DNA of 63,068 nt, counting the filler, from Craspedostauros australis (lineage: Eukaryota), in assembly GCA_030167865.1 (NCBI GenBank). It is 9 parts of 9 records of this genome, joined end to end, with 100 filler letters (N's around TTAATTAATTAA, not from the genome) between each part and the next. Parts side by side here need not be neighbours in the genome. Positions count along the whole stretch, not along the records: positions 39,850 to 52,351 come from JALAGF010005444.1; 8 more parts are not named here. One strand, written 5' to 3'. Position 1 is the stretch's first letter, and each line of letters opens with the position of its first letter. The position numbers were made by a program, and so were the translations under genes. Shown piece after piece: positions 7,048 through 51,725 of the stretch. Below the pieces are notes generated by a model. The model was not told where the DNA came from and searched no databases. It saw only the letters and a program-made list of their open reading frames with translations.

Positions 7048-7582
7048 ATAATGGCGATGGCGACGAATGATGGTGTGGAATACGACCAGAGAAATGTCGG
7101 CATTGTTTCATAGAGTTGGATGAGAGACAGCACAGGTGCGATCACAGCATGTGTTGGTCCTACTATGGCACGAGTGTTGCAAGGAGGAGGATATCGATTG
7201 TTAGTCGTAAAATCACAGCACGGGAGAGCAGGTTGTCTTGTCGCATGAGCACACATCCGAGCTTGGGACTTGAGAGAGCAACCGATTCGTGTCCACAACA
7301 GTTTGCCACACAGCCGGTGTGACGGCCAGACTGAAACGAGCTCGTTTGAAATCGTGGATTGATAGTATCTGCCGCAGCTCCCCATTCACAATCCAAAACG
7401 AAGAATCCATCGCCACACATTTCTGCGCGTGTCCACAACTCTGAGTTCGGATGCAACACGGCATTGTTGTTGCGATCAAGTGTCATCGATCAAGCACATA
7501 TTCTATTAGTAACATTATTATCTATCGACTCGTACAACCAACTCGTCGAAGAGATCAGCAAAAGTACTGTGCTCGATTACAA

Positions 7583-9478
7583 ATGAACTATACGTACATT
7601 GCCTTCTTCCTGGCCTACATCGCATTGACGCTGCGCTCTGTCCACGAGGCAGCAAAGCCAGGATCATTGTGCGGAAAGCATGCAGGAGCGCCGTGCTTTC
7701 GTCCTCTCCTGAAGGAAGGCGACGCTGTCTCCATGGTTATTTCCGCCCAGTTGCCAATCCAATCCAATGCGACGGCGTCACAGCAGCTCAGGTTCACTCC
7801 GATCTGTCAATTCGACCTCACAGTCCCAAAGCTGAGATGGCACTACGGAAGCATGCAAGGAAATGAGACAAGCCTTCCTGGTCTCGGTTCCAGTGCGAAT
7901 GCAGACATGAATATGAATACAAATACGAATGCAACTGCGAATACGAATACGAATATGAATACAAATGCAACTGCGAATACGAATACGAATGCAACTGCGA
8001 GTGGCAGCAATCCAAGCCCCACCAGCATCCAGTGCAACGTCAGCATCCCGGATGCCATCCGTCGGCGATCTTCCAATGACCAATCGACCATGAAGCCATG
8101 GATGACGAGAATAACATTTCGATTGGATGATGGAACGGTCCTCAATCAAATCGCGTTTGATCTCACCAAGATCACAGAACGCAAGTCCAGTGCCGGGATG
8201 CTCGGAGGCAATCCCACCCACGTCGATATGATCCCATACCTCAAGTACGGCCGGGAATGGATTCACGTCCGGTGGGTTGCCGAATACCGACCGTACGGGT
8301 CGTACCATCGCAACGACGGCATCGCGTTGCAAATGTCCAACGCCACCACGTACCGACCTGCCGTTTACATCGATGAAAAGGCCGTGCGGCATTCCACAAT
8401 GATCGAAATTGGCGAATCGGGAGACGGCAAGCCGCCCATACCACTGCGCATCCGCCTCACCGCAATCTCGCCACAGCTAGACTCGATCAACATCCAAATC
8501 ATCGAAGCGCTGCGGATGATGGAATCAATGCTGGGGGCGACCTCGGAATTGGATGAGATTCGATACTTCTTGTCGGACGATAAGCTGTATCGGTTCTTCA
8601 TCACGCAGGTCATCTCCTACGTCCATCTGTGGTTGGACTACGTCGCCTTTCGGGACGAAGTCCAATTCTACCGTGGCAAACGGTCCATGAAGGGCGTTTC
8701 GGTTTCCTCCGTGGTTTCCAAATTCGTGTGCTCCTTCATCATCTTCCTGTACTTGCTCGATGGCGGCGGGACGAGCTGGTTGGTCCTTGTCAGCATCGGA
8801 AGTTCGTGTCTGGCGGAGGGCTGGAAGGTGCAAAAGGTGCTGCAACCACGCTTCCAGTGGCGCTGGCCGTGGCTTCAAACCAAGCCATGGGTGAACTCCA
8901 AAGAAGACGGCGACATCTTCGATCGCATCGCCGTCCTGAACTTGGCCATGGCCTTTTACCCCGCTGTCATTGGCTGGGCGATATATTCGTACCAGGAGCA
9001 CGACTACAAGTCCTGGTGGTCCTGGCTCATCAGCAACCTCGCCAATGCGGTGTACACCTTCGGTTTCATCTCCATGTGCCCGCAGCTGTACGTCAACTAT
9101 CGTCTCAAGAGCGTGGCACATCTGCCATGGAAGGTGTTCGTTTACAAGATGTTCAACACCTTCGTCGACGACGCCTTCGCCTTCCTCATCGACATGCCGT
9201 GGAAGCATCGGTTGATGACATTGCGCGATGACGTGGTGTTCCTGCTCTTGCTGGTGCAGGTTTACCTGTACCGTGTCGACAAGACGAGAACGAATGAATA
9301 CGGGTACGCCTACGAAGGGGAGGAGAAGCAGGAGCAAGAGCGGGGCAAAGCATTAGCAGGACAAGCAGCAGCAAGTACAGCTGCAAAGACGGAAGTACAG
9401 GCAGAAACAACACCGTGGGCGTCGCTGCAAGTGGATAATCCAACAACGACGGAGAACAAGAAGAAGAAGGACGATTAA
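7583..9478 (+). CDS. CLPTM1: CLPTM1/CLPTM1L-family multipass membrane protein (lipid scramblase family)
   Basis: The C-terminal stretch FGFISMCPQLYVNYRLKSVAHLPWKVFVYKMFNTFVDDAFAFLIDMPWKHRLMTLRDDVVFL..YLYRVDKTRTNEYG is the CLPTM1 signature. ATG at 7583. Confidence 0.92.
   Translation: MNYTYIAFFLAYIALTLRSVHEAAKPGSLCGKHAGAPCFRPLLKEGDAVSMVISAQLPIQSNATASQQLRFTPICQFDLTVPKLRWHYGSMQGNETSLPGLGSSANADMNMNTNTNATANTNTNMNTNATANTNTNATASGSNPSPTSIQCNVSIPDAIRRRSSNDQSTMKPWMTRITFRLDDGTVLNQIAFDLTKITERKSSAGMLGGNPTHVDMIPYLKYGREWIHVRWVAEYRPYGSYHRNDGIALQMSNATTYRPAVYIDEKAVRHSTMIEIGESGDGKPPIPLRIRLTAISPQLDSINIQIIEALRMMESMLGATSELDEIRYFLSDDKLYRFFITQVISYVHLWLDYVAFRDEVQFYRGKRSMKGVSVSSVVSKFVCSFIIFLYLLDGGGTSWLVLVSIGSSCLAEGWKVQKVLQPRFQWRWPWLQTKPWVNSKEDGDIFDRIAVLNLAMAFYPAVIGWAIYSYQEHDYKSWWSWLISNLANAVYTFGFISMCPQLYVNYRLKSVAHLPWKVFVYKMFNTFVDDAFAFLIDMPWKHRLMTLRDDVVFLLLLVQVYLYRVDKTRTNEYGYAYEGEEKQEQERGKALAGQAAASTAAKTEVQAETTPWASLQVDNPTTTENKKKKDD
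7895..8000 (+). repeat. In-frame low-complexity tandem repeat (GAATAC/GCAACT units) encoding an N/T/A/M tract in CLPTM1
   Basis: Repeated gaatac/gaatgcaactgc units translating to NMNTNTNATANTNT... Confidence 0.85.
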
Positions 9479-9842: not shown

Positions 9843-12119
9843 CTATCTTCCTGGCGGTGGCGCACGCTGCAGCTTGTCCTTCTGATGCTTCAGCAGCTGA
9901 TTGAGCATGTTCCCCGAATCCTTGCGGTACGTGTCACGTGATCCAGGCGGGACGCTCATGCGATATTGCAGTTCTTCCGTCGTCAAGCTTTCCGACAGCT
10001 CGAGCAGAGTGCCCAGGACGGTGGAGATGTGATTGGGCGCCACCTTATCTGGGCGCATGGTGAAGTAGTACCATTCTCCGGTTTCCGGATCGAATCCCAC
10101 CTCGGCGATGCGTGCCTTGGGGGCTTGGAAATGGTCGGCTTCCAACCGAAAGCGTTCGCCCTTGGGCAAGGATACGTAGCGCGTCATGTCGACCATGGAC
10201 CCTTCGTCTCCCACGACGCCCACGCGCAACGTGTCTTCAGCGTGGTGATGCAACAACGGCATGAGCTCTACGTCGATCGTAACCGTGTCGAGGTATTTCC
10301 ATTTGAGGAGGTGATGATCCGTGCCGCAGATGTAGGGCAAGTTTGGCTGGAAGATGATGCCATCCGTGAGGTGATTGTGCACGTTGCCCTTGCGGAAGGA
10401 TCTGAGTCCCTTCTCCTCGATGACATTTTCAAGCAGCGCGGAGATTTGCGTTCGCGTGACGAAGTTCTTGCGCACCAGCGGCAGCGGTATCTTTGGATCC
10501 ATCACGGCAGAATCCGCGAACATATCTCGTTTTGCCGTCGGCGTGCGGAAGGATGCCTGCCGCAGATGCGCCAGACGTTGCTTGAATGGGAGCTGGAGGA
10601 TGGGCGTTGTGCAGTTGAGGCAGAGCACGTCGAAGACGATGAAGATCGGACGTGGCGGGACCTTGTGCTTTGGATTGCCTCGGAACATGACGACTTCACC
10701 GTCCAGGACCGTGCCGGGTTGGATGAGGGGGATGACGGATGCCATGGGTTCCTCGCCCTTGACCGGCTTCGTCTGCTTGCCGCGCATGGCGCGATCGACC
10801 AGGACCACCGTCTTGCCAGTGAAGACCATGAAATGACGCACGCCGTCGGTCTTCTCGCTGAGGTAGTAGCCGTCGGAGGGCGCGTTCTGGATCTCCTCTA
10901 TGTTGTGACGGGAGAAGCTGACGGGCATGCAGCCACCGAACTTCATGTTGGTGAGCGACGGGGACGGCATTTCATCTGGCGTGGCGATGGGACTGCGGAA
11001 GTGTCCGTTGCCACCAGCGTCCATGAACTTCTTGAGGGCGCCGCATGTCGCCAACGCCAACTGCGTGGCCTTCTTGTCTGAATGGTCCACGAGATACTCC
11101 TCGACGTCCACCGTGTCCTCCATGGGATTGATCTGCTGCAGGATCCACCATAGCTGCAGGGCGTAGCTCTTGGTGAGGTTGGCGATCTTGTTTGGATCCG
11201 TCTCGTTGACGAGGTTGAGCATGGCCCAGGGTCTGAGTTCGTACTCGAGTTCGTAGGCCACGGCCTTGTTCTGGGGGTTGTCCTTGGGCACCGTGGTGAC
11301 CTCAGTGACGTCGATCTGCCAAGCCATGTTCTTGTCCTTGCGGTAGTACGAGCGCCTGCGCTTGATGCGCTGCTGGGTCCAGCCGTTGGGGACGGAGCGG
11401 ACGTTTGGATCCACCTGTATTTCTGAGGCCAGGCTGATGCGCAGGTCGTACTTGGCGGCCGGCAGGGTCCAGTCGACGCCCAGGAGCTTCTCCTTGTACT
11501 CCATGGTGCCCGGTCTGGGCAGGGCCTTTGCCTGCGACGCATCCACGAGGCCGGGCACGGAGATGCGTCGCTCTCCCGAGAATCCGCTGAAGACGGTCTC
11601 GATGAGCTCCGCCTCATGCAGCTCGTTGCGGATCTTGGGCACGTCGCTGGGCTTCTTGACGACGACGCTGAGCGCGGTGGAGATGGGGGAGACCTGGCTG
11701 AGGCCGGCCATGGTCCAATGCACGTGATGCGAGCGGGAGATGCCGGACGACATGCTGTGGCGCATGTTGGTGCAGTCGAAGGCCTGCACGATGCCGCTGT
11801 GTCCTGCGACGTGCTTGGCTCCGGAGGGCGCCACGCGGCGCTGGTTGAGGTTGAGGACGCCCAGACGGCCTTCGATCTCGCAGAAGGGCTTTTGGATGGG
11901 GAACGCCTTGTCGCCCTTCTCTGCGTACTTGCGAGCCGACGTGCGTGCCTGCGTGAGGAGGATGCGCAAGCCCTCGCCCGGGTTGGGAATGGGCTTGGAC
12001 AGGAAGGGATTGGCGTTGGCCGCGCTCGCACGAGCACGTGATTGCGTCGCCATCTTGGCATCCGTCTTGGACTTTTTGCTCAGCAGCCCTCCCAGGGCGC
12101 CGCCACCGCGTTTCGACAT
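9843..12119 (-). CDS. Bifunctional mRNA capping enzyme: CYTH/TTM (Cet1-type) RNA triphosphatase fused to guanylyltransferase + OB domain
   Basis: N half has the tunnel-metalloenzyme strands EIEGRLG, YDLRISLASE, RIKRRRSY, WQIDVTEV, YELEYEL. C half has GTase motifs FGGCMPVSF, EKTDGVR (motif I), TVLDGE (III), FIVFD (IIIa), DGIIF (IV), LLKWK (V), RPDK..PN (VI). ATG (MSKR) at 12119. Confidence 0.92.
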   Translation of the reverse strand: MSKRGGGALGGLLSKKSKTDAKMATQSRARASAANANPFLSKPIPNPGEGLRILLTQARTSARKYAEKGDKAFPIQKPFCEIEGRLGVLNLNQRRVAPSGAKHVAGHSGIVQAFDCTNMRHSMSSGISRSHHVHWTMAGLSQVSPISTALSVVVKKPSDVPKIRNELHEAELIETVFSGFSGERRISVPGLVDASQAKALPRPGTMEYKEKLLGVDWTLPAAKYDLRISLASEIQVDPNVRSVPNGWTQQRIKRRRSYYRKDKNMAWQIDVTEVTTVPKDNPQNKAVAYELEYELRPWAMLNLVNETDPNKIANLTKSYALQLWWILQQINPMEDTVDVEEYLVDHSDKKATQLALATCGALKKFMDAGGNGHFRSPIATPDEMPSPSLTNMKFGGCMPVSFSRHNIEEIQNAPSDGYYLSEKTDGVRHFMVFTGKTVVLVDRAMRGKQTKPVKGEEPMASVIPLIQPGTVLDGEVVMFRGNPKHKVPPRPIFIVFDVLCLNCTTPILQLPFKQRLAHLRQASFRTPTAKRDMFADSAVMDPKIPLPLVRKNFVTRTQISALLENVIEEKGLRSFRKGNVHNHLTDGIIFQPNLPYICGTDHHLLKWKYLDTVTIDVELMPLLHHHAEDTLRVGVVGDEGSMVDMTRYVSLPKGERFRLEADHFQAPKARIAEVGFDPETGEWYYFTMRPDKVAPNHISTVLGTLLELSESLTTEELQYRMSVPPGSRDTYRKDSGNMLNQLLKHQKDKLQRAPPPGR

Positions 12120-12619
12120 TGTGTTGTGTGTTGTGTGTGGTAGGGTATGGGTATGGGTATGGATACGAGTATGGATACGAGTATGGGTAGAGTAGAGTAG
12201 GATGTGGTGGGGATGAATTGGATGGTTGTGCACATGCACAAATATAGAATAATAGAATACGAGTAGAATAGAATACTATTATTGATGGGCAGGTGTGGGC
12301 TCTTTGAGGAATATTACTACTGCTGCGACCTCCCAGAGTGTGCGGGAGATTGGTTGTCTCTGTTGGTTGGAGACGGAAGATCTCGCGAACGTGAGAGAAG
12401 GAGGGAGCGAAGTTCTGTTTCGCGAAAGATAGCAACGTTGTTGACTCGTTCGATTCGTGCGGCGGAGGTCGTCCAAAACAAAAACACAGACTCCGGCCAT
12501 AATCCATCATTAGAACCATCTGCATACCTCATCACATCATAGTCGTACACATCATAGTAGTACACAGCATACGCCTACGTTTCGATAAAATCAAAGACAC
12601 AGCAAAGAAGGAAGATGGC

Positions 12620-39749: not shown

Positions 39750-39849
39750 NNNNNNNNNNNNNNNNNNNNNNNNNNNNNNNNNNNNNNNNNNNNTTAATTA
39801 ATTAANNNNNNNNNNNNNNNNNNNNNNNNNNNNNNNNNNNNNNNNNNNN

Positions 39850-40015
39850 GAAAGTACCATCACTTCGATGAAAGTACCACCAGTTCGATGAAAGTACCAC
39901 CTGTTCGATGAAAGTACCACCAGTTCGATGAAACTACGACCAGTTCGATGAAACTAAGACCAGTTCGATGAAAGTACCAATAGTCCGACAAAGGTCCTAC
40001 GAGTCCGATGAAAGC
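39850..40015 (+). repeat. 20-bp tandem array (core TTCGATGAAAGTA), about 8 units, decaying rightwards
   Basis: aaagtaccac-cagttcgatg with period 20. Confidence 0.95.
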
Positions 40016-41038
40016 GGACACTCTGCAACGCACGCCACAACGGTTCAAGAAACCAACTCGTGTCCAAACAGCCGTTCTGTTGCAACAAGACCCAATGACA
40101 ACAACAAGAGCCCGAAACCCCGTGCCAATCTGTGTCGCTCCACATCACAGAGGAAGAACTCAGCAATCAGCCAACCAATTGGCACACCAACATTCACCAA
40201 AAAGAGGAAGCAAAGGCAGCAGGGAATTTGGAGTGTTCCAGACAGAATTTCAGTGCAGTGGAAAGAGCGCAGCCTGCGGCGTGGGATAATGGTGAACGTG
40301 TGACGATCGGCAGACGCGACGGGTGTGCATTGTGTGTGCACTCTGACTGTCTCAGCAGACGCAGCGGGCAGGAGAATTTGCCGCCGCTCCGTCCGTCATC
40401 AGACCGTCGACCAACGCGGAAATTCACGAACCACCCAATTTCCACCAACCAGTTTATTTTGTGCTCCATCGCGACTCAAAACGTCGAAATGTCCACGCGA
40501 CATTCCATGGACACGGAGATTTCGCATCGACCTCCAAGGCTAGTGTATAAATGTAGACCACCTGTTTCACACAGGAAAAGTACAAGCCACATCATACATG
40601 TTTATCATACTTGTAGCATTGTGACATTAACAAGTTCCTATCAACGCACATTGTCAAATGAAGGGATAAATGCCTACTTCAGTTGTAGATATGTGCATCA
40701 TCCATCTGTTTGCTCCAATTCTGTACATCGTGGATCGTATNCTGACTAAACNTNCATAGGAAAGGATAAAATATTACACTTTAACAAGAATAGTGCATCC
40801 CAAGCATTCCAATGGGTATACTGCCAGCTAGCAAGTGTATTTATCCATCTGGAAGAGATACTGATATCCAAATCTATGAACCTCGTCATACTCAGTGCAA
40901 CGCTCGACGCTGCACAATCTTCTGCATGTCTACGCATTCCTCAGGCCATATTGTGAAATCCGACTGGCGGCACCACTCCAATCACACTCCAATGAGTATG
41001 GCCATTGAGTTTGAAGTCCTTGATTTGCCTGGAAGGGA

Positions 41039-41820: not shown

Positions 41821-43537
41821 AAGGGATCTAATTCTACTGATGCTGATATCCTGCAGTACTGAAACATACGCATCATGCTGCTCAGAGTCCTGAGCAGATG
41901 TGCATATAAAATGTCAATCATATTCAATGTAGCACCTTGGCGCGTCCAAACGCACTCCATGGAGGGCAGTCATGGAGTTTGAAGCTGCACACCTGCTAGC
42001 AAGGTGCATCAACATGCCCTCAGGTGAACCTCATGTTACGACGCTGCTGAGTGCTGCTTGATATCAGAATCAGTAGAATTAGATCTCTTCCAAATGGACC
42101 AAGAGCTTCAAACTCCACGGCCATAGCCATTGAAGTCTACTTGGAGTGTTCAGCAGTCGCATGTCTCAAGGCAGCCAACCAAAGGCATAAATGTGTGGAA
42201 TACTGCTCAAGGCGATGCCTACTGTAGAGATGCGTCCCAGGCAGTACTGCGTGAAACAGCATCTGTAAGAATGGATCCCATACAGATGGACCTTGCATTT
42301 CCACCACCATTTGCGTACTCTTTAGATTGCATGCGGAGTGACTGAAGTGCTTGTGTGGAGTATATTTGGTGTTGTCTATGCACATATGCTCAGAACACTG
42401 TACAACGTGAGGCGTATCTATCAGCCCCACGTGATATGAGCATCCATGAAATTGGATCCCTTCCTGACGGATCTAGGGGCTTCCAACTCCATGCCCGTAT
42501 TCTGTGATGTATGGTTGGAGTGGTTGTAGCGTTGGATCAGAATACAATGGACAGTTCCTATGCGCAAATATCCAAATCACTGCCCAGTGCGACATGTACT
42601 GTTTTGTACTGCGTGATATCAGCATCTGTAGAATTAGATCCCTTCCAAATGGAGCTAAGACTTCAAACTCCATGACTGTACTCTTTGGAGCGTGTTTGGA
42701 GCTAGGCAGTTGATCATATCTCTCAAAACAGCCTGCTAAATGCATAGATATGCGTAATGCAGTACAGAGTCAAGCGTACCGCACAGTATGCCGAGGTTCA
42801 TAGATTTGGATACCAGGATTCCTTCCAGATGGATCCAGATACTTGGAAACCACCTCCATATCCATTGAAGCACTTTCACTATGACGAGGTTGGTAGAATT
42901 GCAGACGTTGGATCTTTCATATGAAGGTTTGGTCAAAACCCTGCATACCGCACAGAGTCGCCGTGCGGTATCATGTGATTTGATTGCGTACAATGTGCAA
43001 CATCTTCTAGATGGATCCAGTCACTCGCAAGCTGGTAGTATAACCATTGGAATGATCTCAATGTTCTGATCTTGTTTAGATGGAATATGTTTATGCTTTT
43101 CAATGAAGACTTGGTCAGAATACAATCCACAACGCACAGAATTGGAGCAAACAGGTGAATGATGCACATATCTACAACTATAGTAGGCATTCATTCCTAT
43201 CATTAGATGATGTATGTTCATATGTACTGGTTAATGTTGCCAGCATGACAAACATGTATGATGTGGCTAGTACTTTTCCTGTGTGACACAGGTGGTCTAC
43301 ATTTATATTCTTGCCTTGGAGGTCGATGTGAAATCTCTGTGTCCATGAGATGTCACTCACACGTTTTGTGCAACTGAGTTCTGTGAAAATCGACTGGTTG
43401 GTGGAATTCGGGACTTCAAAAGGGCTGGTTCGTGGATTTCCTCGTGAACCAACAGAATAACACGACTCACAGCTTCGCACAAAATTGGTTGGTGGCGTTT
43501 CGACGAAAGTATGCACGCGCCAATGATGGTCGCAACC

Positions 43538-43697
43538 ATTCGATGAAAGTAACACAGGCTCGATGAAAGTAATGTCACTTCGATGAAAGTAGTGTCACTT
43601 CGATGAAAGTAACACCACTTCGATGAAAGTAACACCACTTCGATGAAAGTAACAGGACTTCGATGAAAGTAACAACACTTCGATGAAAGTAACAATA
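43538..43697 (+). repeat. 20-bp tandem array (CGATGAAAGTA core), 8 units
   Basis: cgatgaaagta at 43541, 43561 ... 43681, with a degenerate copy at 43501. Confidence 0.95.
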
Positions 43698-43732
43698 CTA
43701 CGCGTAACGTCTATAACGTCTATTTAACGTCG

Positions 43733-44650
43733 TGACGCACAGGCTTGGTGTCCCCGTCCGGCTCATTGGGGTTTGACGTGGTTGTGAATGGGACCGGACT
43801 GATTGGAGTCTTGCGCGCGTGGTCTCCGCGAACTTTCGGCGAAATTCCCGTGTCTTGCAGTCATGCGTTTCTCTCTTGGTCTCCTGACACCATTTCTTAC
43901 GATTGGTGTCAAGCTTGATGTCCTTTCTGAATTGTTCTAGTCCGTGAGTGGCANGTGTTTCGGTTCTCCTGATGGGGTGNTCACAGACCTGCTGGTCATC
44001 GATGTTTCTCCTGTGACGTCGTTGTTTGGATTTTCTTGTTAGAGGAGGACAGGCTTGTTTTCTTGTCAAGACTGAGATCAGTCACGTTCGTCTTGAGTCA
44101 TGGGTGTGATCAACAAGACTCAAAGGTGTGATCAACAGGAGTTGATTTCAGTCGTGATTGATAATTTTGGGAGGTGCGGCAATCANNNNNNNNNNNNNNN
44201 NNNNNNNNNNNNNNNNNNNNNNNNNNNNNNNNNNNTGCATCTCATCATGCATATCATCATCTACATTCATGCGGTACGATTCCACAGTCATGCGTTTCTC
44301 TCTTGGTCTCCTGACACCATTTCTTACGATTGGTGTCAAGCTTGATGTCCTTTCTGAATTGTTCTAGTCCGTGAGTGGCACGTGTTTCGGTTCTCCTGAT
44401 GGGGTGATCACAGACCTGCTGGTCATCGATGTTTCTCCTGTGACGTCGTTGTTTGGATTTTCTTGTTAGAGGAGGACAGGCTTGTTTTCTTGNNNNNNNN
44501 NNNNNNNNNNNNNNNNNNNNNNNNNNNNNNNNNNNNTCAACAAGACTCAAAGGTGTGATCAACAGGAGTTGATTTCAGTCGTGATTGATAATTTTGGGAG
44601 GTGCGGCAATCATGGGTATCTTGACAAAGTCGTGCCCCCGATTCCTGACA
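43733..44650. mobile_element. LTR-like repeat (family B) truncating the RT of the adjacent copia element; internally duplicated by assembly gaps
   Basis: Ends ...gattcctgaCA at 44650, the same terminal motif as 56730 (...gattcctaaCA). The RT ORF loses similarity exactly there. Left boundary uncertain. Confidence 0.55.
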
Positions 44651-47600
44651 GGTACATGTCTGCAGTATCCTGGTTCAGTTTGGTTGGATTGTCTTCGTTC
44701 ACGGTGAAGAGGTGGTCCGCGGCGGGTGATGTTGCCTTTCCGTGCATATCGGCGGGCACTCCTTTGAGGATGCCATCGATGTAGTCACCCATGTTGATCT
44801 TCACTTTGTTGGGAGTGCTGTAATCCAATTGCATCCCAAGGTAGTCGTGTACTTTCCCTCTTTTGATTGTCAGTGGGCTGTGCTGCCCGTATGCGTGGTT
44901 GAGCATGCTGATGACGGAGTTGACGGCTGAGCTGTCTTTGTGGGATATTTTGAGGTCATCCACATGCCACACTACCGTGCACTGGTCCCCATTGATGTCC
45001 TTGTTCGCCACACACCAGTCATATGGATTGATCACAAACCCGTCGTTGATCAACGTGGTCGTGAGATCCTTCCACCATTGGAGGGCGGCCTTGAGTGTCC
45101 CATACAATGCCTTGGTGAGTTGCACGTAGATTGATGATTGTCCTTTCTTCTTTCGCACATATTCATCGTACACATCAGGTGCGATCTTTGCGAGCAGCTC
45201 TGCCATTCGTCCTTCGATCAGGACATGCACGACTTCTCCCTCGTCGAAAGTGGTTTGCAGGAAGGCGCCTGGCACATCCACTGTGGCCACATCACGGTTT
45301 TCGTGTGCGTCAATTGTGCATGTGAGCATGAGCCCGAGGAGGGAGACAGTCGGTGAACTCGTCTCTTCCTTCGTCATGTAGAGGCGTTGTTTCCGTCCGT
45401 CTGCGCAGCCACGTCCTTTGATGAGTCCAGTGCGCTTTTCCTTCAGATACATCAGGTACCGGAGCGATTGCGTTCTTTCCTCCTTTGACAGTTGGTGCCA
45501 GTGCTTCGGTTCAAAGCCTTCCATGTCATGCACTTGTTTCAGCTCTTTGCTGATTGCGTGCTCGCCCCGCTCGCGGAACAGTTTCAGTCCCTGTTTCCAG
45601 TTCATCTGTTCCGTCAGAAACACACAGGCGTGATTGGTGTCATGTGACTCGTTGCTATTTTCAGTAGAGAGTTCAGTCATGGTGACATGCGCCTCGTCTC
45701 TACCTACATGATGCAGCCGGTGATAGTCGACTCTCAGCTTGCGTCGTGGTCTGCCTGTTGGTGGCTCCACTGAATCCGCATCCTCATCCGACGGTGCCTC
45801 TTGTTGTTCCTCTTCTGTCATAACTTCGAGGATCGGTTCAAGGACATTGCCTTCGTTGGCATCACTGTCTTCGTCTGATGGGTGCGTGCTGTCGCCATCA
45901 TCATCCGATTCGTCGCTTTCAACTGCATCGGTGTCATGATTGTCGTCGCCGTCATCGGTATCATCATCATTGGTGTTGTCATCGTCGTCAGAGTCGTCAT
46001 CGGAATCATCGTCTGAATCATCCGCATCCAGCGATTCCTCGCTTGCATCGGACTCGTCGTCTGGGTCGTAGTCGTCGTCGTTTGCATCGTCGTCACCGGG
46101 GTCGGCGGTGATGGACACGATATCGTTGTCGTTACTGTCTGTGAATACAATCTCCTTGTTGCCTCTGGAGTGTTTGGCCATTGCGTGCACTTGATCGATG
46201 ACATCCTCCGGCATGGGCAGCGTGGTCCAGCTTCGACGGTGCAGTCTGCGCCCTGTGGATAGACTGAAGAATAGGTATCCGCCTTGATCATTCCCTGACG
46301 GTCGAAGTGCCAATGCGCCCACTGTCCTGGGCAGCATCGAATTGTCATGTTGTTCGTGCGTTTGCACGTAGGAGCCAAACTCGATCTTGCAGTGACTTGC
46401 AAAGTTCAGTTTCCGTCCCACCACGATCTCGGACGGGCTCATGCGCTTGGATATGCCATCTTGGTGTGGGAACATGTTGTTCCAGTACACGGAGTGGTAT
46501 ACCATTTCGATGATGAGCGCTGGAGGGTAGTGCTTGAACGGCATTGCATGGTACGTGCTGCGCGTTCTCTCTTTGATTGTTCGGATGTATCGTTCGATTG
46601 CCGGCACGTGCTCATCTCTGGAGGTGACGTTAATTGCAACTCCTGATGCTGCGAGGCTTCCTCTGATGGATGCAAACTGGTTGTCAGTCAGTATCATGTC
46701 CACCTTGAATCCGCGCTGCTTGTACAGTTTCACAACTTCGCGGAGTTGCTGTGTGATCACTTTGTCTGACTCGCTGTTGAGTTTCGTCACTGTCCCGAAC
46801 TTGATGTGTTGAGAGATGGTAACGAGGAATGGAATTCGGTTCACCTTCATGATGTCAGCTGATAGGGTCACCTGCTGGTACTCTTTCATGATGTAGGCTG
46901 GTAGGCTGGTGATTGATGGAGCGACCACAGGCGACGGTTTGCGAGTAGTCTTGCCCTTCAGTGACCCGACATCCGGCCCGAAGATGATCTCTGCGTTGCG
47001 AATATCTTTGGTGGTGACAGGACAGTTTGGGATCATGTTGTTCCGTACATACCGAATGTAGTTGCGTGTTGTTGGTCGACCAATACGCTGTTGCACAGAA
47101 CGAGCTAGCTGAGCGCGAGAGTAGTCAATAGATGAGAATCTAGACTTGTTATCGGCTACGGTATTGACGAGAGCGTTTCCGTGGATGGTTGCTGTGTCCA
47201 GATAGTAGAGGCCGTTGTTGGATTCACGGAAGACTTGGGTGGTTCCATCTGGTTTGTGTACGACGAACTGGTTGGTGTCGCTACTGTCGTACGTGACGCG
47301 GAACATGGACTTCACCTTGCTCAGCGACAGGATGTTTGCCACTCCTTTGGGGTGATACCACACAAGGCCATAGCCGGGCAGGGTGCCTTTTTGGTTGGTC
47401 ACTGCTGTACCCGCGTTGCAGTGGATGGTTAGTGTGTTCTGGACAGTGTGAATGTCGCGAAGTAGGTGATGGTTGGAGAACACATCAACTGTAGATTGGT
47501 TGTCGAGAAGCACCCACCTGTTGGGGATGGGTGTGGATGTTTGGTTGAATGCGTGGTCGGTGGTTTGGTTGGTGTCCGTCTGCAGGAACACAAACTCGTT

Positions 47601-49078
47601 GCCGTCGTACTCGTAGTCGTCGTCGGCGTACGTGGTGGTGGCATTCACGAGGACCGTTCCGTTCTCATGGAACTTTGCATAGCACTCCGCGGTGGCGTGG
47701 TTTGTCCTCCCACATCGCTCACACTTCTCTGCGTCAGCCTTGGCCTGCGAGTTGACGAATGCCATCCCCATGTTGTGTGGTGTGCGAGAGCCAGCCACGT
47801 TTCTTGGGTCATGCGACCAGTGGTTGAGGAGCATCAGCGCCGTCGCCATGTTGGTGGGGTAGCTGTCGTTTCCGACGAGGAATTCATTGTGGAGGTGCTC
47901 GAGCAGCCCTCCAAACCTGGTGATGTCCGCACCAAGAACGAACGCAGTGGCCATGTATCTTCGGCGTGAGTCGTCCTTGATTTCCTGGAGGCGTGCTGTG
48001 CCAACGGGTGAGACGTCTGCTGGGGTCATCAGCCATAGCATGATTCCGCGGTTTTCGGTGATTCCGGTTTGCAGCGTGTCATTCACATCGGCGATGGCTG
48101 TGAAGGTCTCGTAGTAGTCCTGGACGCTTTGTCGTTTGCCTTGTCGGGTGTTGATGAATGCCTTCTGCATCTCATGCATGGCAACGATGGGGTGTTTATG
48201 AGTGTTGTAGCTGAACGTGATGTTCTTGATCAGCATGATGAGCTGAATCAGGTTCATTTCTCTCTTGACTGCTGCATACTCGCTTTCCTCCTGTAGACGG
48301 GCGCGCATGGCATCAGTGCATTGGCCCCACACGACGGAGTACAGCTTCTGCATGTCGTCTTCGAGCTTCTCCTTTCTGTCCTCGAACTTGCTGTACTGTT
48401 TCTTCCATTTCTCCCTTTGGATGGTGGATGGTGGATGCAGTGGGTGGGTAGTCAGCTGGTTCTGCAATGGTTGGTGTTTCGAGGGTCTCCACAGCGTGTG
48501 CCACTTTGGGTCCGTAGGTGACGCCAGCAAAGACTTGGATGGCATCGATGGTCTGCTTGAAGTCCTCCGCTTGCTTGGTCCGGGAGGTCACGCAGTCGAA
48601 GATCATTCCCTTGAGCTCGGGGCAGGCGCCCTCGAACTTGGGTGCTTTGGCGAATGGGGGCGCCCCTTGTTGTTGTTGTTGTTGTTGTTGCCTTTGCCGC
48701 CTTCGGGCTTGGTCGGTTTGGTCTTGATGTCGGTGCTCATCGTTACGATGAAGCGCAATCCAGTTTAAAATATGTTGAAGCAATGGCTCCTGCACCGGCC
48801 TCTACCCGGCAATGAACCGAAGGGCAAACCAGATGAGGAGCAATGAGATTGTTGTTGTGGTGTAATCAGATATTTTAAACTGGATTTATGGCTGCTTGTT
48901 GCCGATCTCCAGCTTGTTGCCGATGATCGGCTTGTTGTCGTTTTTCTTGTGTTTGCTTGCTTGGTGTTGGTGGTGGCTGCCAGCCGTTGATTTGCATCGA
49001 CGAATGACGTCATTGGCATTTCCTGGTTTCTTTGGTTTCGCGCCATCTGTCGTCACAATTTGGGCATCTGCTCCAACA
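44651..49078 (-). mobile_element. Ty1/copia (CoDi-like) retrotransposon: 5' LTR 49078-48773, gag-pol from ATG 48740 (two gag frameshifts), RNase H and 3' LTR missing
   Basis: Gag KFEGACPELKG and LYSVVWGQCT, knuckle CERCGRTNHATAEC. PR WVLLDNQST. IN SADIM / LTDNQF / IERYIRTIKER, then an acidic linker. RT KGRGCADGRKQR, DVPGAFL, KALYG, WHVDDL. LTR termini TGTTG...CAACA. Confidence 0.93.
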
Positions 49079-49591
49079 GCATCGGGATTGTATGCGCTGC
49101 ATTTGGCGGCCGCCTCCAATTCTCGATTGTTGCGAACGGGGCTTGTCGATACCAACAAAGATGATCAGGAACGTCTGGATTGTGTCAAGATGCTTCTGCA
49201 GAGCGGATCCCCCATCAAGATGAGGGACGGCAACAAGCAGAGCGTGTTGCACTGCGCCGCCCGAGCCGGGCACACCGCGATCGTGGAGTACGTGATGCAG
49301 GAACGCATGCACAACGAGGACGCGAATCCAAGCGATCATTACTTCAATTGCTTCGATCGCTGGTACAGAACGCCTGCGCATTGGGCCGTGCTGAATGGCC
49401 ATGCGGAGTCCTTGGCCGTCCTGCTGCAGCACGGCTGTCACCCCGATCCGCCGAAACCCAAGGTGAACAGGAAATCCAGCGCCGCCGTCGAAAGTCCGAT
49501 GGAGATGTGCGAACGTATCCATGGCGATGATTCCAAAGTCGGACGTCGCATGATGGATCTGTTGATGAAAACCCAGCGCGGAATGGATTGA
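49079..49591 (+). pseudogene. 3' part of an ankyrin-repeat gene, 5'-truncated by the retrotransposon LTR
   Basis: GLYALHLAAA, QSVLHCAARAGH and RTPAHWAVLNGHAESLAVLLQHG. Coding-like sequence begins at the LTR boundary. Confidence 0.7.
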
Positions 49592-49637: not shown

Positions 49638-49653
49638 CAGAGCAAAGGTATTA

Positions 49654-51190
49654 CCTTCCACCTCACTCACTCGGCAAACCGATAGCACTAGTTGTAGAGT
49701 TTTTGCCGTGTTCCTTGTCAGATTGACTCGTGTTTGGATGATCNNNNNNNNNNNNNNNNNNNNNNNNNNNNNNNNNNNNNNNNNNNNNNNNNNNNNNNNN
49801 NNNNNNNNNNNNNNNNNNNNNNNNNNNNNNNNNNNNNNNNNNNNNNNNNNNNNNNNNNNNNNNNNNNNNNNNNNNNNNNNNNNNNNGGAATTCTGTTGTG
49901 ATTTCCCACACCCCAACAGCAAGAAAAGACCGTCACCAAGAAAAGAAACACAACAACACGACAATGGGGAAACAAAACAAGACACTGCGAGAACCGCCAA
50001 ATGTCATGGACGGCATTGCATCAACCACCAGTCCAATGCCAGATCCAAGCACATCAACGGAACCGCCATAGAAATTTTGGTGGATGGGCAAGAGGGAGCT
50101 ATCATAGCGGTTCATTTGAATCAGCGATAGTGAAAAGAGCGAAATGTGCAAAAATGCGTCAAAAATGCATGTTGGGTACGGGCTGTGTGTAGACGATACA
50201 AGCCATTTAAACAACCAAGGATGGGCAAGATGCATCAAGGGGATCAAGATGAAGGGTAATACGAAGTTTGAGGCTGAAAGAACGCCTGGAGGGTGTCGAT
50301 GGAGGGGAACAAGTGGAGTGCAGGAGTTTTTGGGGTGGTGACAAAGCACCCATCACGTGGCTTTGCTGGTGTGGTGGCGCACGTGAACATCCGCCACATC
50401 GCCAACCCACCCATACAAGATGTGTTCATTATCAAGTCAAGAATGGGGTTCAAGAAGTGGGGATCGATTACATTGAGTGGAAGAGGTTGGAACCAACCAA
50501 ATGCTGCAGTCGCATTTTTCGATACGAAGAAAAACTGACGATGGCATCAGCGTCGGGATGGATTAAAAACTGGAGATCCATCTTGAGGCGTTGTGGAATG
50601 CATCAGCGTGTAATCAGTGAATCAGGGATCGAGGGAGGCTGTGTGGGGGGAACAGAGATGGTTGTGAGCGGGAGATATGATCGGATGAAGCAGCTGCCTT
50701 TGGACCGTCCTTCATTTTCAAAAATGTTGGATTTCAGAAATGGGCTGCCAATGTGCATTGAACGGAGATCTGACGGTGCATGCTTGGCAGGGATGGATAC
50801 ATATGAGGTATATGGAGACAATGAGACGCGCAGGTGGCCGAAACGAGATGGTTATGGGCATCATCTTGGATGGCAAAGTGATGGCACCATGGTCCCATCC
50901 AGAATTTTGCGCCACACACAATCCCACGTTGACAACAAAAATGATGCTAAATTTGAAGTCAATTTAAATTTAAGTTCAATATTCTTATTTGCAGGCAACG
51001 ATTTGTTCACATGGTACACTTATTTTTAATTATGAATGATGTGGTGTTGCGATATAGCATCATAAGCGTTTATTGGGATGGATTGCAATTTTGCTCTAGA
51101 CTGGGCTACGCAACACGACTAATCCCACGCTGGAGGGCAAAAAACTCTACAACTAGTGCTATCGCTTTGCCGAGTGAGTGAGGTGGAAGG
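49654..51190 (+). mobile_element. TIR DNA transposon (about 55-bp TIRs, TA on both flanks) with decayed transposase-like interior
   Basis: 49654-49707 is the reverse complement of 51136-51190, with one mismatch and one homopolymer indel. TA at 49652-49653 and 51191-51192. Confidence 0.85.
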
Positions 51191-51725
51191 TACGCACGCT
51201 TGTTCCTGCAAATGGAATGCGCCGAGGGTGGTCGTGTTTCGCGATGGCCCACAGAGATCAAGAACGAATGTTCGAATTGTTGACATCATTAGTCGAACGA
51301 GTCAACGCTGCGAAGACAATCAGAAGCGTTGGGAAAAAGAGAAGCACGAGGAACACAGCAGACTTCGTGAGGTCAATAAATCCTTCGAGACAACACAGGA
51401 TCAGACACGCACGCCACGGCACAAAGATCGACGCGTCGTCAACAAGGAGGAAAGATCGACACGATGCAGATTGCGTTCTCAACGATGACAGCAGAGAGAG
51501 GCAGCGAAGGCAATGATGATGGCAATGGTGATGGCAATGGTGATGACCATGACCATGACGCCCACAATCGAAAAGAGAAGCACAAGATAGCCTCCAAGTA
51601 CTCTGCACCTCATACCGACACCCACACTCACACATCATCATACTCGTAGTTCATAAGCAAGACCACAAGCAATAAGAATAGCAACAGCAATAGGAATAAC
51701 AATAGATATAGCAGCAACAGCGACC

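Follow-up and report, generated by a model that had tools for sequence, protein, structure and literature searches.

A Ty1/copia Lineage with Diatom Relatives Whose Primer-Binding Site Complements Its Own LTR and That Is Predicted to Self-Prime

Self-priming retrotransposons and the Craspedostauros element

To our knowledge, self-primed reverse transcription has been proved experimentally for Tf1 only, and it is predicted for the Tf1/sushi group and one plant Copia lineage. In Tf1, the first 11 bases anneal to the primer-binding site (PBS), and RNase H cleavage separates base 11 from base 12 (reviewed in PMC7175516). The plant lineage is Ty1/copia TAR (including Houba and Osr-1), for which self-priming is predicted from an operational signature, namely a stretch of 10 bp or more in the 5′ LTR that complements a site starting 0–5 bp past the LTR (as set out in PMC6317226). 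The fungal Copia element GalEa is described as having a conserved 9-bp palindrome whose pairing starts at the last A of the 5′ LTR and whose partner lies just downstream, in the internal region; the authors of that study report having seen no complement to the palindrome in the LTR (U5) (PMC5445492). The Copia groups of diatoms, CoDi1–CoDi7, are about 5.2–8 kb long with TG/CA LTRs of 153–844 bp and are reported from diatoms and ocean metagenomes (PMC2806351). The main text of that study (Maumus et al., 2009) contains no mention of PBS, tRNA, TSS, or initiator.

The window (the whole stretch of DNA analyzed, 63,068 nucleotides from Craspedostauros australis) contains a Ty1/copia element on its minus strand, with a gag zinc knuckle, then an integrase fold, and then RVT_2 (profile and fold searches; Table 1). 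Like Tf1 and Tf2 of Schizosaccharomyces pombe (Tf1/sushi, Ty3/gypsy), it has a PBS-like site that adjoins the 5′ LTR and complements RNA derived from that LTR. As in Tf1, the transcript would start with the complement, the RNA between the two sites is predicted to fold, and no tRNA would be needed. Unlike Tf1, the lineage belongs to Ty1/copia, with integrase before RVT_2, and its duplex spans 14–17 nt rather than 11, with arms that are 87% A+T and with the last LTR base included in 27 of 34 elements; its self-priming is predicted from sequence, whereas that of Tf1 is established experimentally.

The plant TAR elements, as described, belong to the same superfamily and carry the same signature, which was found here over 17 nt in the window and over 14–17 nt in 36 loci of relatives; for either group, the mechanism is a prediction. 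The two differ in lineage and host range. Relatives of the window element that carry names are from diatoms, and most relatives come from environmental assemblies. With this plant prediction (PMC6317226), a self-priming Copia element of the kind proposed in the initial annotation is not without precedent. GalEa, from its published description, is likewise a Copia element without a tRNA PBS and with pairing at the LTR end, but here the partner is inside the LTR, 34–126 nt upstream, the arm sequences are not conserved across families, and the GalEa type of hairpin is absent. The relatives share the size range of the published CoDi groups, and some come from named diatoms. No prior report of self-priming in a diatom or CoDi-type Copia clade was found in the main text of the papers searched; self-priming appears to be undescribed for the diatom-type Copia lineage, though it is predicted in another Copia lineage.

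The window copy and its inverted repeat

Table 1. Positions of the element's features along the window
Feature	Position	Strand	Details
5′ LTR	48773..49078	-	306 nt, TGTTGG...TTCAACA; termini by homology to the clade's LTR start and end
Candidate self-primer segment (arm 1), AATCCAGTTTAAAATAT	48870..48886	-	LTR positions 193–209; RNA 5′ end predicted within 0–2 nt
Spacer between arms	48774..48869	-	96 nt; probably U5 with the remainder of R; forms a stem by itself
Putative primer-binding site (arm 2), ATATTTTAAACTGGATT	48757..48773	-	Base 1 is the last LTR base; ends 16 nt short of the gag ATG
gag-pol coding region	44652..48740	-	ATG at 48740; frameshifts near 48655–48666 and 48416–48432 (translations against the family consensus)
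gag CCHC zinc knuckle, CERCGRTNHATAEC	47649..47726	-	Pfam zf-CCHC_5, E 2.3e-5, 24.4 bits (curated threshold 27, not reached)
Integrase catalytic core (RNase H-like fold), upstream of RT	46476..46898	-	AlphaFold2 and Foldseek
Copia-type reverse transcriptase, RVT_2	44760..45488	-	Pfam PF07727, E 1.3e-14, 54.9 bits (cut-off 31.6); residues 1034–1276 of P0001

The window copy is dead. It carries two gag frameshifts, RNase H is missing, and no 3′ LTR is present in the window, where a search for a second LTR by repeat search, blastn, and blastn-short returned none; the direct-repeat families there are runs of N or 20-nt tandem repeats. As an incomplete copy, it does not display the full set of two LTRs, target-site duplication, and RNase H. 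The downstream limit of the coding region, after the reverse transcriptase, is the end of homology to relatives, and many locus matches stop at query residue 1312. The window includes 2,808 N in many gaps, and close to the 3′ side of the element, blocks are duplicated around gaps.

The CX2CX4HX4C pattern of the zinc knuckle can be read directly in the translation of gag. Sequence searches of the integrase region were negative: Pfam rve gave no match even at E up to 5, and a search of the PDB gave 0 matches with the single sequence and zinc-knuckle matches only with the full-length profile. An AlphaFold2 model of 46158–47180 (residues 470–810) had a mean pLDDT of 70.5, with the core above 80. 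Its best Foldseek matches were the integrases of HIV-1, RSV, and BIV (E 1e-7, probability 1.00, TM 0.72 to core domains). Judged by this model and the profile match, integrase is encoded before reverse transcriptase, as in the Ty1/copia order gag-PR-INT-RT-RH. The RVT_2 match and the upstream integrase fold agree with the initial annotation in assigning the element to Copia.

Since the window holds a single LTR copy, the boundaries of that LTR rest on homology. By homology to relatives, locus L066 among them, the start lies at the TGTTGG at position 49078. L066 has two 100% identical 282-nt LTRs (TGTTGG...TTCAACA) with a 5-bp target duplication, GGCGC, on their flanks; its PBS begins at the base right after this independently defined LTR, and its arm 1 starts 188 nt into the LTR, a placement matched by that of arm 1 in the window copy. 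Other relatives also fix the LTR end: in L053, a repeat block stops where arm 2 begins, and L047 and L048 are 3′ LTRs with ...CAACA ends. The terminal motif TTCAACA (CAACA) is nearly invariant among relatives, and a PPT together with TGTTG, the conserved LTR start of the clade, is present in 30 of 80 loci. Homology to the four loci with independently fixed ends bears out the LTR end at 48773 that had been proposed from the window alone.

On the minus strand, 48886–48870 is the exact 17-nt reverse complement of 48773–48757, with a 96-nt loop, which confirms the perfect 16–17-nt complement initially reported between the LTR and the PBS-like site. Read across the junction, the strand runs ...GCTTCAACA, then TATTTTAAACTGGATT, then GCG..., and reaches the start codon of gag at 48740. 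A48773, with which the LTR ends, has T48870 as its partner, and T48772, which comes next, has A48871. When 48740–49200 was compared with the whole window by blastn-short, the match between the arms was the sole significant non-self match (E 0.001), and the next-best matches covered 11–17 nt with mismatches (E 0.35 or worse). The 171-nt RNA was predicted to fold with its arms paired, whether by MFE or by centroid (−52.4 kcal/mol, z −4.3); none of 200 shuffles folded as well. The spacer folded alone gave a loop MFE of −27.2 kcal/mol (z −1.9).

Conservation and covariation of the arms among relatives

Relatives were sampled as 80 metagenome loci with 30–55% amino-acid identity to the window element. 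Relatives that carry names are diatom proteins (Skeletonema, Fistulifera, and Fragilaria), and the majority of relatives come from environmental assemblies. Complementarity between the LTR and the site past it, which the initial annotation had proposed to look for in related copies, was kept in 39 of 40 evaluable loci. It was perfect over 14–17 nt in 36 of these and contained one mismatch or bulge in three (L020, L062, and L080); in L005, L008, and L015, which are among the 36, the contigs are permuted and the two arms lie at opposite ends. L072 begins in a junction-like way, with no complement within its 317 nt of LTR. Many loci were assembled in circularly permuted form, from molecules that could be of any type, and are uninformative on RNA ends. 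Terminal direct repeats of ∼100–200 nt in nine 5.1–6.0-kb contigs were considered as transcript R regions and rejected, as they lie mostly in coding sequence and reflect circularly permuted assembly. Poly(A) or poly(T) contig ends occur only in L065 and L072, and neither is informative on RNA 3′ ends.

A scan for perfect inverted repeats of at least 13 nt with loops of 20–200 nt was run on 336,123 nt in element sense (the 80 loci and the window element). It returned 41 repeats, against a shuffle mean of 0.65 (range 0–3; 20 runs with local composition preserved). In 34 of the 41 (33 loci and the window), the 3′ arm comes directly after ...CAAC, ...AACA, or ...CAATA, that is, after the LTR end. 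These 34 elements were chosen for having the repeat, so that their self-match is true by construction; the bias is addressed by the non-self, shuffle, and slide controls below and by the 39 of 40 count. Across the elements, the spacer between arms is 34–126 nt. The next ATG lies 1–58 nt past arm 2 in 33 of 34 elements, and there is therefore no room for another PBS. In a tree of the integrase region, the trait was found on both sides of the midpoint root. The window element is best explained as a member of a large lineage that probably has no tRNA primer site and whose named relatives are diatom proteins.

The arms vary together. Among the 34 elements there are 32 distinct arm pairs, each matching its own partner, and every one of the 14 pair positions shows two to four Watson-Crick pair types. 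PBSs differ between elements at a median of 8 of 14 positions. Each matches its own LTR over 14–17 nt, whereas the longest non-self match was at most 11 nt in 1104 of 1122 comparisons, and the 18 exceptions are all between close relatives, which form four groups. Among the elements compared, at least 28 primer-PBS pairs are incompatible with one another. Alignment of 27 primer-to-PBS segments with MAFFT brought the 3′ arms into register but not the 5′ arms, and a 16-row subset was used in consequence; four of its rows (L048, L013, L028, and L019) are off register at the 5′ arm and were scored as unpaired. In this subset, both sides change in 12 of 15 pairs, and the covariation score was 0.459 against 0.149 for shuffles, none of 500 reaching the observed score; slid partners paired in 39–53% of cells, against 89% for true partners. 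This is the compensatory change between PBS and LTR segment that the initial annotation had suggested seeking. The A+T content of the arms (87%) raises chance pairing, and slid controls still paired in 39–55% of cells. Within ten related pairs of elements, the arms are 63–100% identical and the loop 36–81%, with the arms conserved at least as well as the loop in all ten, and arm 1 and arm 2 differ by equal counts in each. Because the arms vary yet fit their own partners, a shared tRNA primer is ruled out on this comparison; the variable PBS pattern argues strongly against a single tRNA or a small tRNA set.

A candidate transcription start coincides with the edge of the LTR arm. TCAH(+1)W has been proposed as an Inr-like element of diatoms (as reported in PMC4686930). 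Of the 34 elements, 21 have its +1 on the first base of the arm and five on the second (26 in total), against a background of 38 of 7233 positions (0.5%), and the complementarity never reaches upstream of this predicted TSS at the arm edge. The position of the motif at the 5′ edge of the LTR arm in these 26 elements predicts that the arm is the 5′ end of the transcript, as it is in Tf1. The window copy is one of the 8 of 34 elements without TCAHW; the CATA before its arm is a weak match to CAY(+1)A, for which +1 would be 48888.

Alternative explanations and a proposed priming cycle

An A+T-rich stretch of a gapped draft assembly could produce such a match by chance or by misassembly, and the N-filled gaps (2,808 N) and duplicated blocks near the element's 3′ side are what one would cite for it. 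The 17-nt perfect match is, however, unique in the window, the geometry recurs in independent contigs of other assemblies, and 41 repeats were seen where shuffles gave 0.65; we consider an artefact extremely improbable. In the half-tRNA-primed Copia elements (copia, Osser, Bryco, and Bianca), the PBS complements the anticodon-arm half of tRNA-Met or tRNA-Ile, and a match of that kind to the variable, A+T-rich PBSs of this lineage is unlikely. In the window, AATCCAG-TTTAAAA could mimic what we take to be the 5′ stem and loop of the tRNA-Leu(UAA) anticodon arm. A half-tRNA-Leu(UAA) reading of the window PBS was dropped on the comparative evidence of PBS variability. More generally, a host tRNA or tRNA half might bind the site past the LTR, as in Drosophila copia, Osser, and Bianca, and leave the LTR complement incidental. 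Half-tRNA priming is reported as common in Ty1/copia (PMC6317226), and the comparison with tRNAs covered the one in the window, a tRNA-Val. That tRNA-Val gave no match to the PBS region by blastn-short, the 17-nt complement in the window is 3 nt longer than the hypothetical anticodon arm allows, and the PBSs of relatives, 87% A+T and different at a median of 8 of 14 positions, each fit their own LTR over 14–17 nt. Taken with this evidence, a host tRNA primer is very improbable.

The inverted repeat might instead be a structural RNA or DNA hairpin that serves packaging, dimerization, gag translation, or the control of transcription or polyadenylation, with priming achieved otherwise. GalEa offers a parallel, as it is described as having a conserved hairpin in place of a PBS, with no mechanism assigned (PMC5445492), and the spacer folds too, with a loop z below −2 in 10 of 34 elements. 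Against a purely structural role, the 3′ arm invariably falls exactly where a PBS would, its first base being the last of the LTR or the one after it, the 1–58 nt before gag leave no alternative PBS, and the 5′ edge of pairing coincides with a predicted TSS. Moreover, a structural helix should tolerate G-U pairs and mismatches, whereas 37 elements have uninterrupted Watson-Crick runs of 14–17 nt, as would be expected if each cycle copies one arm from the other. We therefore regard a hairpin without a priming role as unlikely. Self-priming could also take another geometry, in which arm 1 lies in U3, upstream of the TSS, and the PBS pairs with, and draws its primer from, the copy of U3 close to the 3′ terminus of its own or a co-packaged RNA. 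Every LTR element carries U3 at the 3′ end of its RNA, and TCAHW is missing at the arm edge in the window copy and seven other elements, both of which suit this geometry. The Inr-like motif on arm base 1 or 2 in the other 26, at a background of 0.5% per position, speaks for a start at the arm itself, and complementarity that never runs upstream of the Inr point is what is expected if the RNA and the copied primer end there; pairing with U3 is accordingly a quite improbable variant.

Tf1-type self-priming from the element's own RNA end, rather than from a host tRNA, is in our judgment the probable reading for the Copia lineage of the window element. Transcription would begin inside the LTR at the initiator-like TCA|H(+1)W. 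The leading 14–17 nt of the transcript (48886–48870 in the window, 17 nt) would then fold back over the 34–126-nt spacer and pair with the site whose first base is the final one of the LTR (48773–48757). Cleavage at the 3′ terminus of this paired 5′ segment, presumably by the element's RNase H as in Tf1, would yield the primer, which reverse transcriptase would extend through U5 and R. Later, the plus strand would copy the primer itself, so that every cycle would renew the PBS from the primer sequence; perfect Watson-Crick duplexes and the joint drift of primer and PBS would follow from this renewal. The anatomy, its conservation, the covariation, and the lack of space for a second PBS are observed, whereas the transcription start, the cleavage, and the priming itself are predictions; the comparative evidence favors the self-priming proposed in the initial annotation.

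Carried further, the reading would be that an abundant, diatom-associated Copia lineage has given up tRNA primers, that the first 14–17 nt from the initiator +1 serve as the primer, that the pair is free to drift, and that each family keeps a private priming code; we hold the odds on this wider proposal to be even. The dozens of covarying primer-PBS pairs would form a natural mutational series on what RNase H cleavage recognizes. Model diatoms can be transformed. Copia elements are reported to be transcriptionally active in them (PMC2806351), and for these two reasons the inheritance of arm changes by the PBS should be directly testable. If true, the lineage would escape PBS annotation based on tRNAs and any silencing aimed at tRNA-type PBSs, and LTR-element finders that require a tRNA-type PBS will mis-score such elements in diatom genomes. 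It would also bear on whether self-primers evade control based on tRNA fragments, a question raised in PMC7472051, and on the idea, put forward in PMC3601003, that the ancestor of LTR elements was hairpin-primed. Self-priming in this lineage would either have arisen independently for a third time, after Tf1/sushi and plant TAR, or be ancestral to LTR elements. Its presence in a second, deeply branching lineage of Copia that is widespread across aquatic metagenomes would mean that self-priming is no fungal or vertebrate oddity.

Paired arms at the LTR end of the window element

On the minus strand, the junction between the LTR and the internal region of the Copia element reads, in order, ...CCATTGCTTCAACA, TATTTTAAACTGGATT, GCGCTTCATCGTAACG and ATG. 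The initial annotation had described a perfect complement between an LTR segment and the site at the LTR end, and this was confirmed: AATCCAGTTTAAAATAT (arm 1) is the exact reverse complement of ATATTTTAAACTGGATT (arm 2, the putative primer-binding site, PBS) over 17 nt, with 96 nt between the arms. A48773, the final base of the proposed LTR, pairs with T48870, and T48772, the first base beyond it, pairs with A48871. When positions 48740-49200 were compared with the full 63-kb window (blastn-short), the arm match was the sole significant non-self match (E 0.001); the only tRNA gene in the window gave no match. In the predicted RNA fold of 48900-48730 (-52.4 kcal/mol, z -4.3), both arms are paired in the minimum free energy and centroid structures, and none of 200 shuffles reached this stability. 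Repeat and blastn/blastn-short searches of the whole window revealed no second LTR copy, and the LTR boundaries consequently rest on homology to relatives. The LTR termini of L066 (a complete metagenomic relative) and the CAACA end place the LTR end at 48773, the position proposed from the sequence.

Features of the window
Feature	Position	Strand	Remark
CLPTM1-family ORF	7445-9478	+	host gene
Fused mRNA capping enzyme ORF	9843-12275	-	host gene; triphosphatase + guanylyltransferase
tRNA-Val(CAC)	22792-22865	+	host gene
20-nt tandem repeat arrays	39810-40074; 43485-43749		3.6 kb apart; unit read on minus strand like GTTACTTTCATCGAAGTNNT
Duplicated block	43858-44065; 44285-44492		99% identical; spacing 427 nt
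Duplicated block	44110-44185; 44537-44612		100% identical; spacing 427 nt
Copia ORF	44610-48545	-	1311 codons; RVT_2 near C-terminus, CCHC knuckle near N-terminus
Arm 2	48773-48757	-
Arm 1	48886-48870	-
LTR	49078-48773	-	306 nt
Ankyrin-repeat coding segment	49169-49450	+	Ank_2, E 5e-15; about 90 nt outside LTR start
49-nt inverted repeat	49652-49700; 51144-51192		98% identity; upstream of Copia element

Coding region and setting of the window copy

The Copia ORF carries a reverse transcriptase domain (RVT_2, E 1e-14). Pfam rve had no match, up to E 5, in the ~340 residues between gag and RT of the element protein (P0001), and is also absent from the precomputed domains of 120 relatives. An AlphaFold2 model of residues 470-810, built with 27 homologues, had a mean pLDDT of 70.5 (core above 80), and Foldseek matched it to retroviral integrase catalytic cores (E 1e-7; TM 0.72 to HIV-1 core domains). 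The model indicates that the integrase of this clade, missed by Pfam rve, folds as a retroviral-type integrase core, giving the order gag, integrase, RT, which is that of Ty1/copia.

The window copy is dead. Judged against the family consensus, gag starts at ATG 48740, and its frame is lost near 48655-48666 and regained near 48416-48432. Family homology ends at residue 1312 (nt 44652), ahead of RNase H; beyond lie unrelated sequence, assembly gaps and duplicated blocks. The two duplicated blocks (43858-44612), whose copies lie on either side of N gaps, stand directly past this break point. They look as if the draft assembly had left an overlap unmerged or had duplicated a haplotype; RNase H and the 3' LTR may therefore have been lost in assembly rather than by biological deletion. 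The copy is a truncated relic in which the signature happens to survive intact.

The ankyrin open frame, on the opposite strand, extends into the LTR down to 48866, and the insertion site of the Copia element may lie within an ankyrin-repeat gene or a short way upstream of it. As the host genes confirm, the context is eukaryotic and nuclear. The scaffold of the window has gaps at many sites (23456-62798), which add up to 2,808 N in runs of 1-294; recurrent 44N-TTAATTAATTAA-44N linkers are artificial six-frame stop spacers.

Arm pairing across relatives

Of 6105 candidates, 800 were protein relatives at E <= 0.001 (best identity 46%). The few that carry names belong to diatoms (Skeletonema, Fistulifera and Fragilaria). 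One (P0091) bears a Marinobacter MAG label in NCBI, and the presence of this eukaryotic Copia polyprotein among bacterial contigs most likely reflects binning contamination. Metagenome contigs were scanned with an alignment of 40 protein relatives, which confirmed 437 relatives; the best 80 loci were kept (L001-L080; best-segment identity to the query 30-55%).

L066 is a complete insertion, with two 100% identical 282-nt LTRs (TGTTGG...TTCAACA) inside a 5-bp duplication, GGCGC, and its PBS begins at the base directly past the LTR. The CAACA end is nearly invariant among relatives, and a polypurine tract/LTR-start motif, RGAGYGT(G/C)TTG, was found in 30 of these best 80 of 437 loci. The LTR end was set independently of the inverted repeat in four loci: L066; L053, where a 92%-identical repeat block stops where arm 2 starts; and L047 and L048, 3' LTRs with terminal ...CAACA. 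In this clade (e.g., L004, L007, L013, L019 and L053), the pol frame stays open across the polypurine tract and on into the LTR, and the conserved DNA ...AGGAGTG/TGTTGG (slash at the LTR start) codes for the conserved polyprotein C-terminus, consensus ...RSVL. Many contigs of 5.1-6.4 kb are permuted, with terminal overlaps of 100-585 nt, often within coding sequence; L001, L003, L007, L013, L024, L027, L029, L037 and L051 are circular permutations with one LTR plus the internal region. Such permutation is expected where an assembler merges the two LTRs, or the R of an RNA, and contig ends are therefore uninformative on element or RNA ends.

The sense strands of the 80 loci and the window element (336,123 nt) were surveyed for perfect inverted repeats of at least 13 nt with loops of 20-200 nt. 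There were 41, as against 0-3 (mean 0.65) in 20 local-composition shuffles. In 34 (33 loci and the window), the 3' arm lies directly past an LTR end of ...CAAC, ...AACA or ...CAATA, with arms of 14-17 nt and loops of 34-126 nt. The other seven are in L006 (at 2407), L028 (at 2079), L052 (a 64-nt palindrome) and L057 (four). Perfect palindromes of 64, 56 and 33 nt in L052 (3507-3702) and L057 (3323-3620) probably arose as hairpin-type artefacts of assembly or belong to rearranged copies. In L005, L008 and L015 the contig is circularly permuted, and the pair is divided between its two ends; in L020, L062 and L080 the pair has one mismatch or a one-base bulge. L072 has a junction-like start and no complement in the 317 nt of LTR that its contig covers; the pairing is present in the other 39 of the 40 evaluable loci. 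L041 and L047 are 3' or solo LTRs followed by unrelated sequence, with an arm-1-like segment and, as expected, no PBS; L043 stops within the LTR shortly past arm 1; and in L010, L042, L049, L069 and L078 a PBS-like sequence stands at the contig start or close behind it, so that arm 1 is off the contig. The other 32 loci were set aside as short of the junction (gag N-terminus absent or <190 nt upstream), sorted by these criteria rather than individually.

Compensatory covariation among relatives, which the initial annotation had named as a check, was found. The 34 elements were selected for having the repeat, and a 14-17 nt complement in their own LTR is true by construction. They contain 32 distinct arm pairs, and every one of the first 14 positions shows two to four Watson-Crick pair types. 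A+T makes up 87% of the arms, and a median of 8 of 14 positions differ between PBSs. When each PBS was compared with the 250-nt upstream regions of the other elements, no complement exceeded 11 nt in 1104 of the 1122 ordered pairs. The remaining 18 are confined to four sets of close relatives ({L006, L007, L074, L077}, {L009, L018}, {L024, L027} and {L058, L073}), leaving ~28 mutually incompatible arm pairs. Sliding the partner by 1-3 nt reduced pairing from 100% to 39-55%. In a MAFFT alignment of 16 elements, in which four rows mis-registered at the 5' arm were counted against the structure, 89% of cells were paired and both sides had changed in 12 of 15 pairs; the covariation score was 0.459 versus 0.149 for shuffles (0/500 equalled it) and 0.057-0.147 for slid versions. 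Across ten related element pairs, arm identity was 63-100%, compared with 36-81% in the loop and 49-61% in U3; the arms were no less conserved than the loop in all ten, and differences in arm 1 always equalled those in arm 2 in number. On a midpoint-rooted integrase-region tree of the 72 rows (out of 81) whose coverage reached 60%, the trait occurs on either side of the root, and short-loop elements (34-54 nt) form their own clades.

Probable self-priming and predicted transcription start

The 3' arm occupies the exact PBS position. In 33 of the 34 elements the next ATG comes 1-58 nt past arm 2 (the exception is L014, with 705 nt), too close for another PBS to fit between them, and the variety of PBS sequences excludes a tRNA primer common to the family. 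By analogy with tRNA-primed elements and Tf1, the plus strand would copy the primer and thereby rewrite the PBS every cycle; the observed features, uninterrupted Watson-Crick duplexes and a stop of pairing at the predicted +1, would be expected from such copying. A conserved CTCA directly precedes arm 1 (positions -4 to -1: C in 22, T in 24, C in 24 and A in 27 of 34 elements). Kadono et al. (PMC4686930) propose TCAH(+1)W as the diatom initiator-like motif; it places +1 at the first arm base in 21 of 34 elements and at the second in 5, against a background of 38 hits among the 7233 positions of the 250-nt upstream regions. Pairing never reaches upstream of the motif-marked edge in the 34 elements, and an arm edge at the predicted +1 is, by analogy, the Tf1 arrangement. 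The window copy has CATA rather than CTCA, which fits the older CAY(+1)A rule only weakly and would put +1 at 48888; the start near 48886 predicted in the initial annotation is plausible from the sequence. Its self-priming interpretation gains strong comparative support from the near-universal pairing and the covariation, and self-priming is likely to be the function of the paired arms.

Self-priming is experimentally established for Tf1 and predicted for Tf1/sushi relatives, all of which are Ty3/gypsy elements. For the plant Ty1/copia TAR lineage, it is already predicted (PMC6317226), with an earlier proposal for Houba and Osr-1; the criterion there, complementarity of 10 bp or more between the 5' LTR and a site that begins 0-5 bp past it, describes the window element, with 17 bp. 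Fungal GalEa Copia elements also lack a PBS and have a conserved local palindrome and hairpin in its place, for which the authors report no LTR complement (PMC5445492); the arrangement differs from that of the window element, whose complement lies inside the LTR. The main text of the paper defining the diatom CoDi groups does not discuss primer sites (PMC2806351). Searches of the full text of papers gave no earlier account of diatom elements that prime themselves. The diatom-type Copia lineage would be a new and well-populated addition to the self-priming elements already known or predicted and not a new kind.
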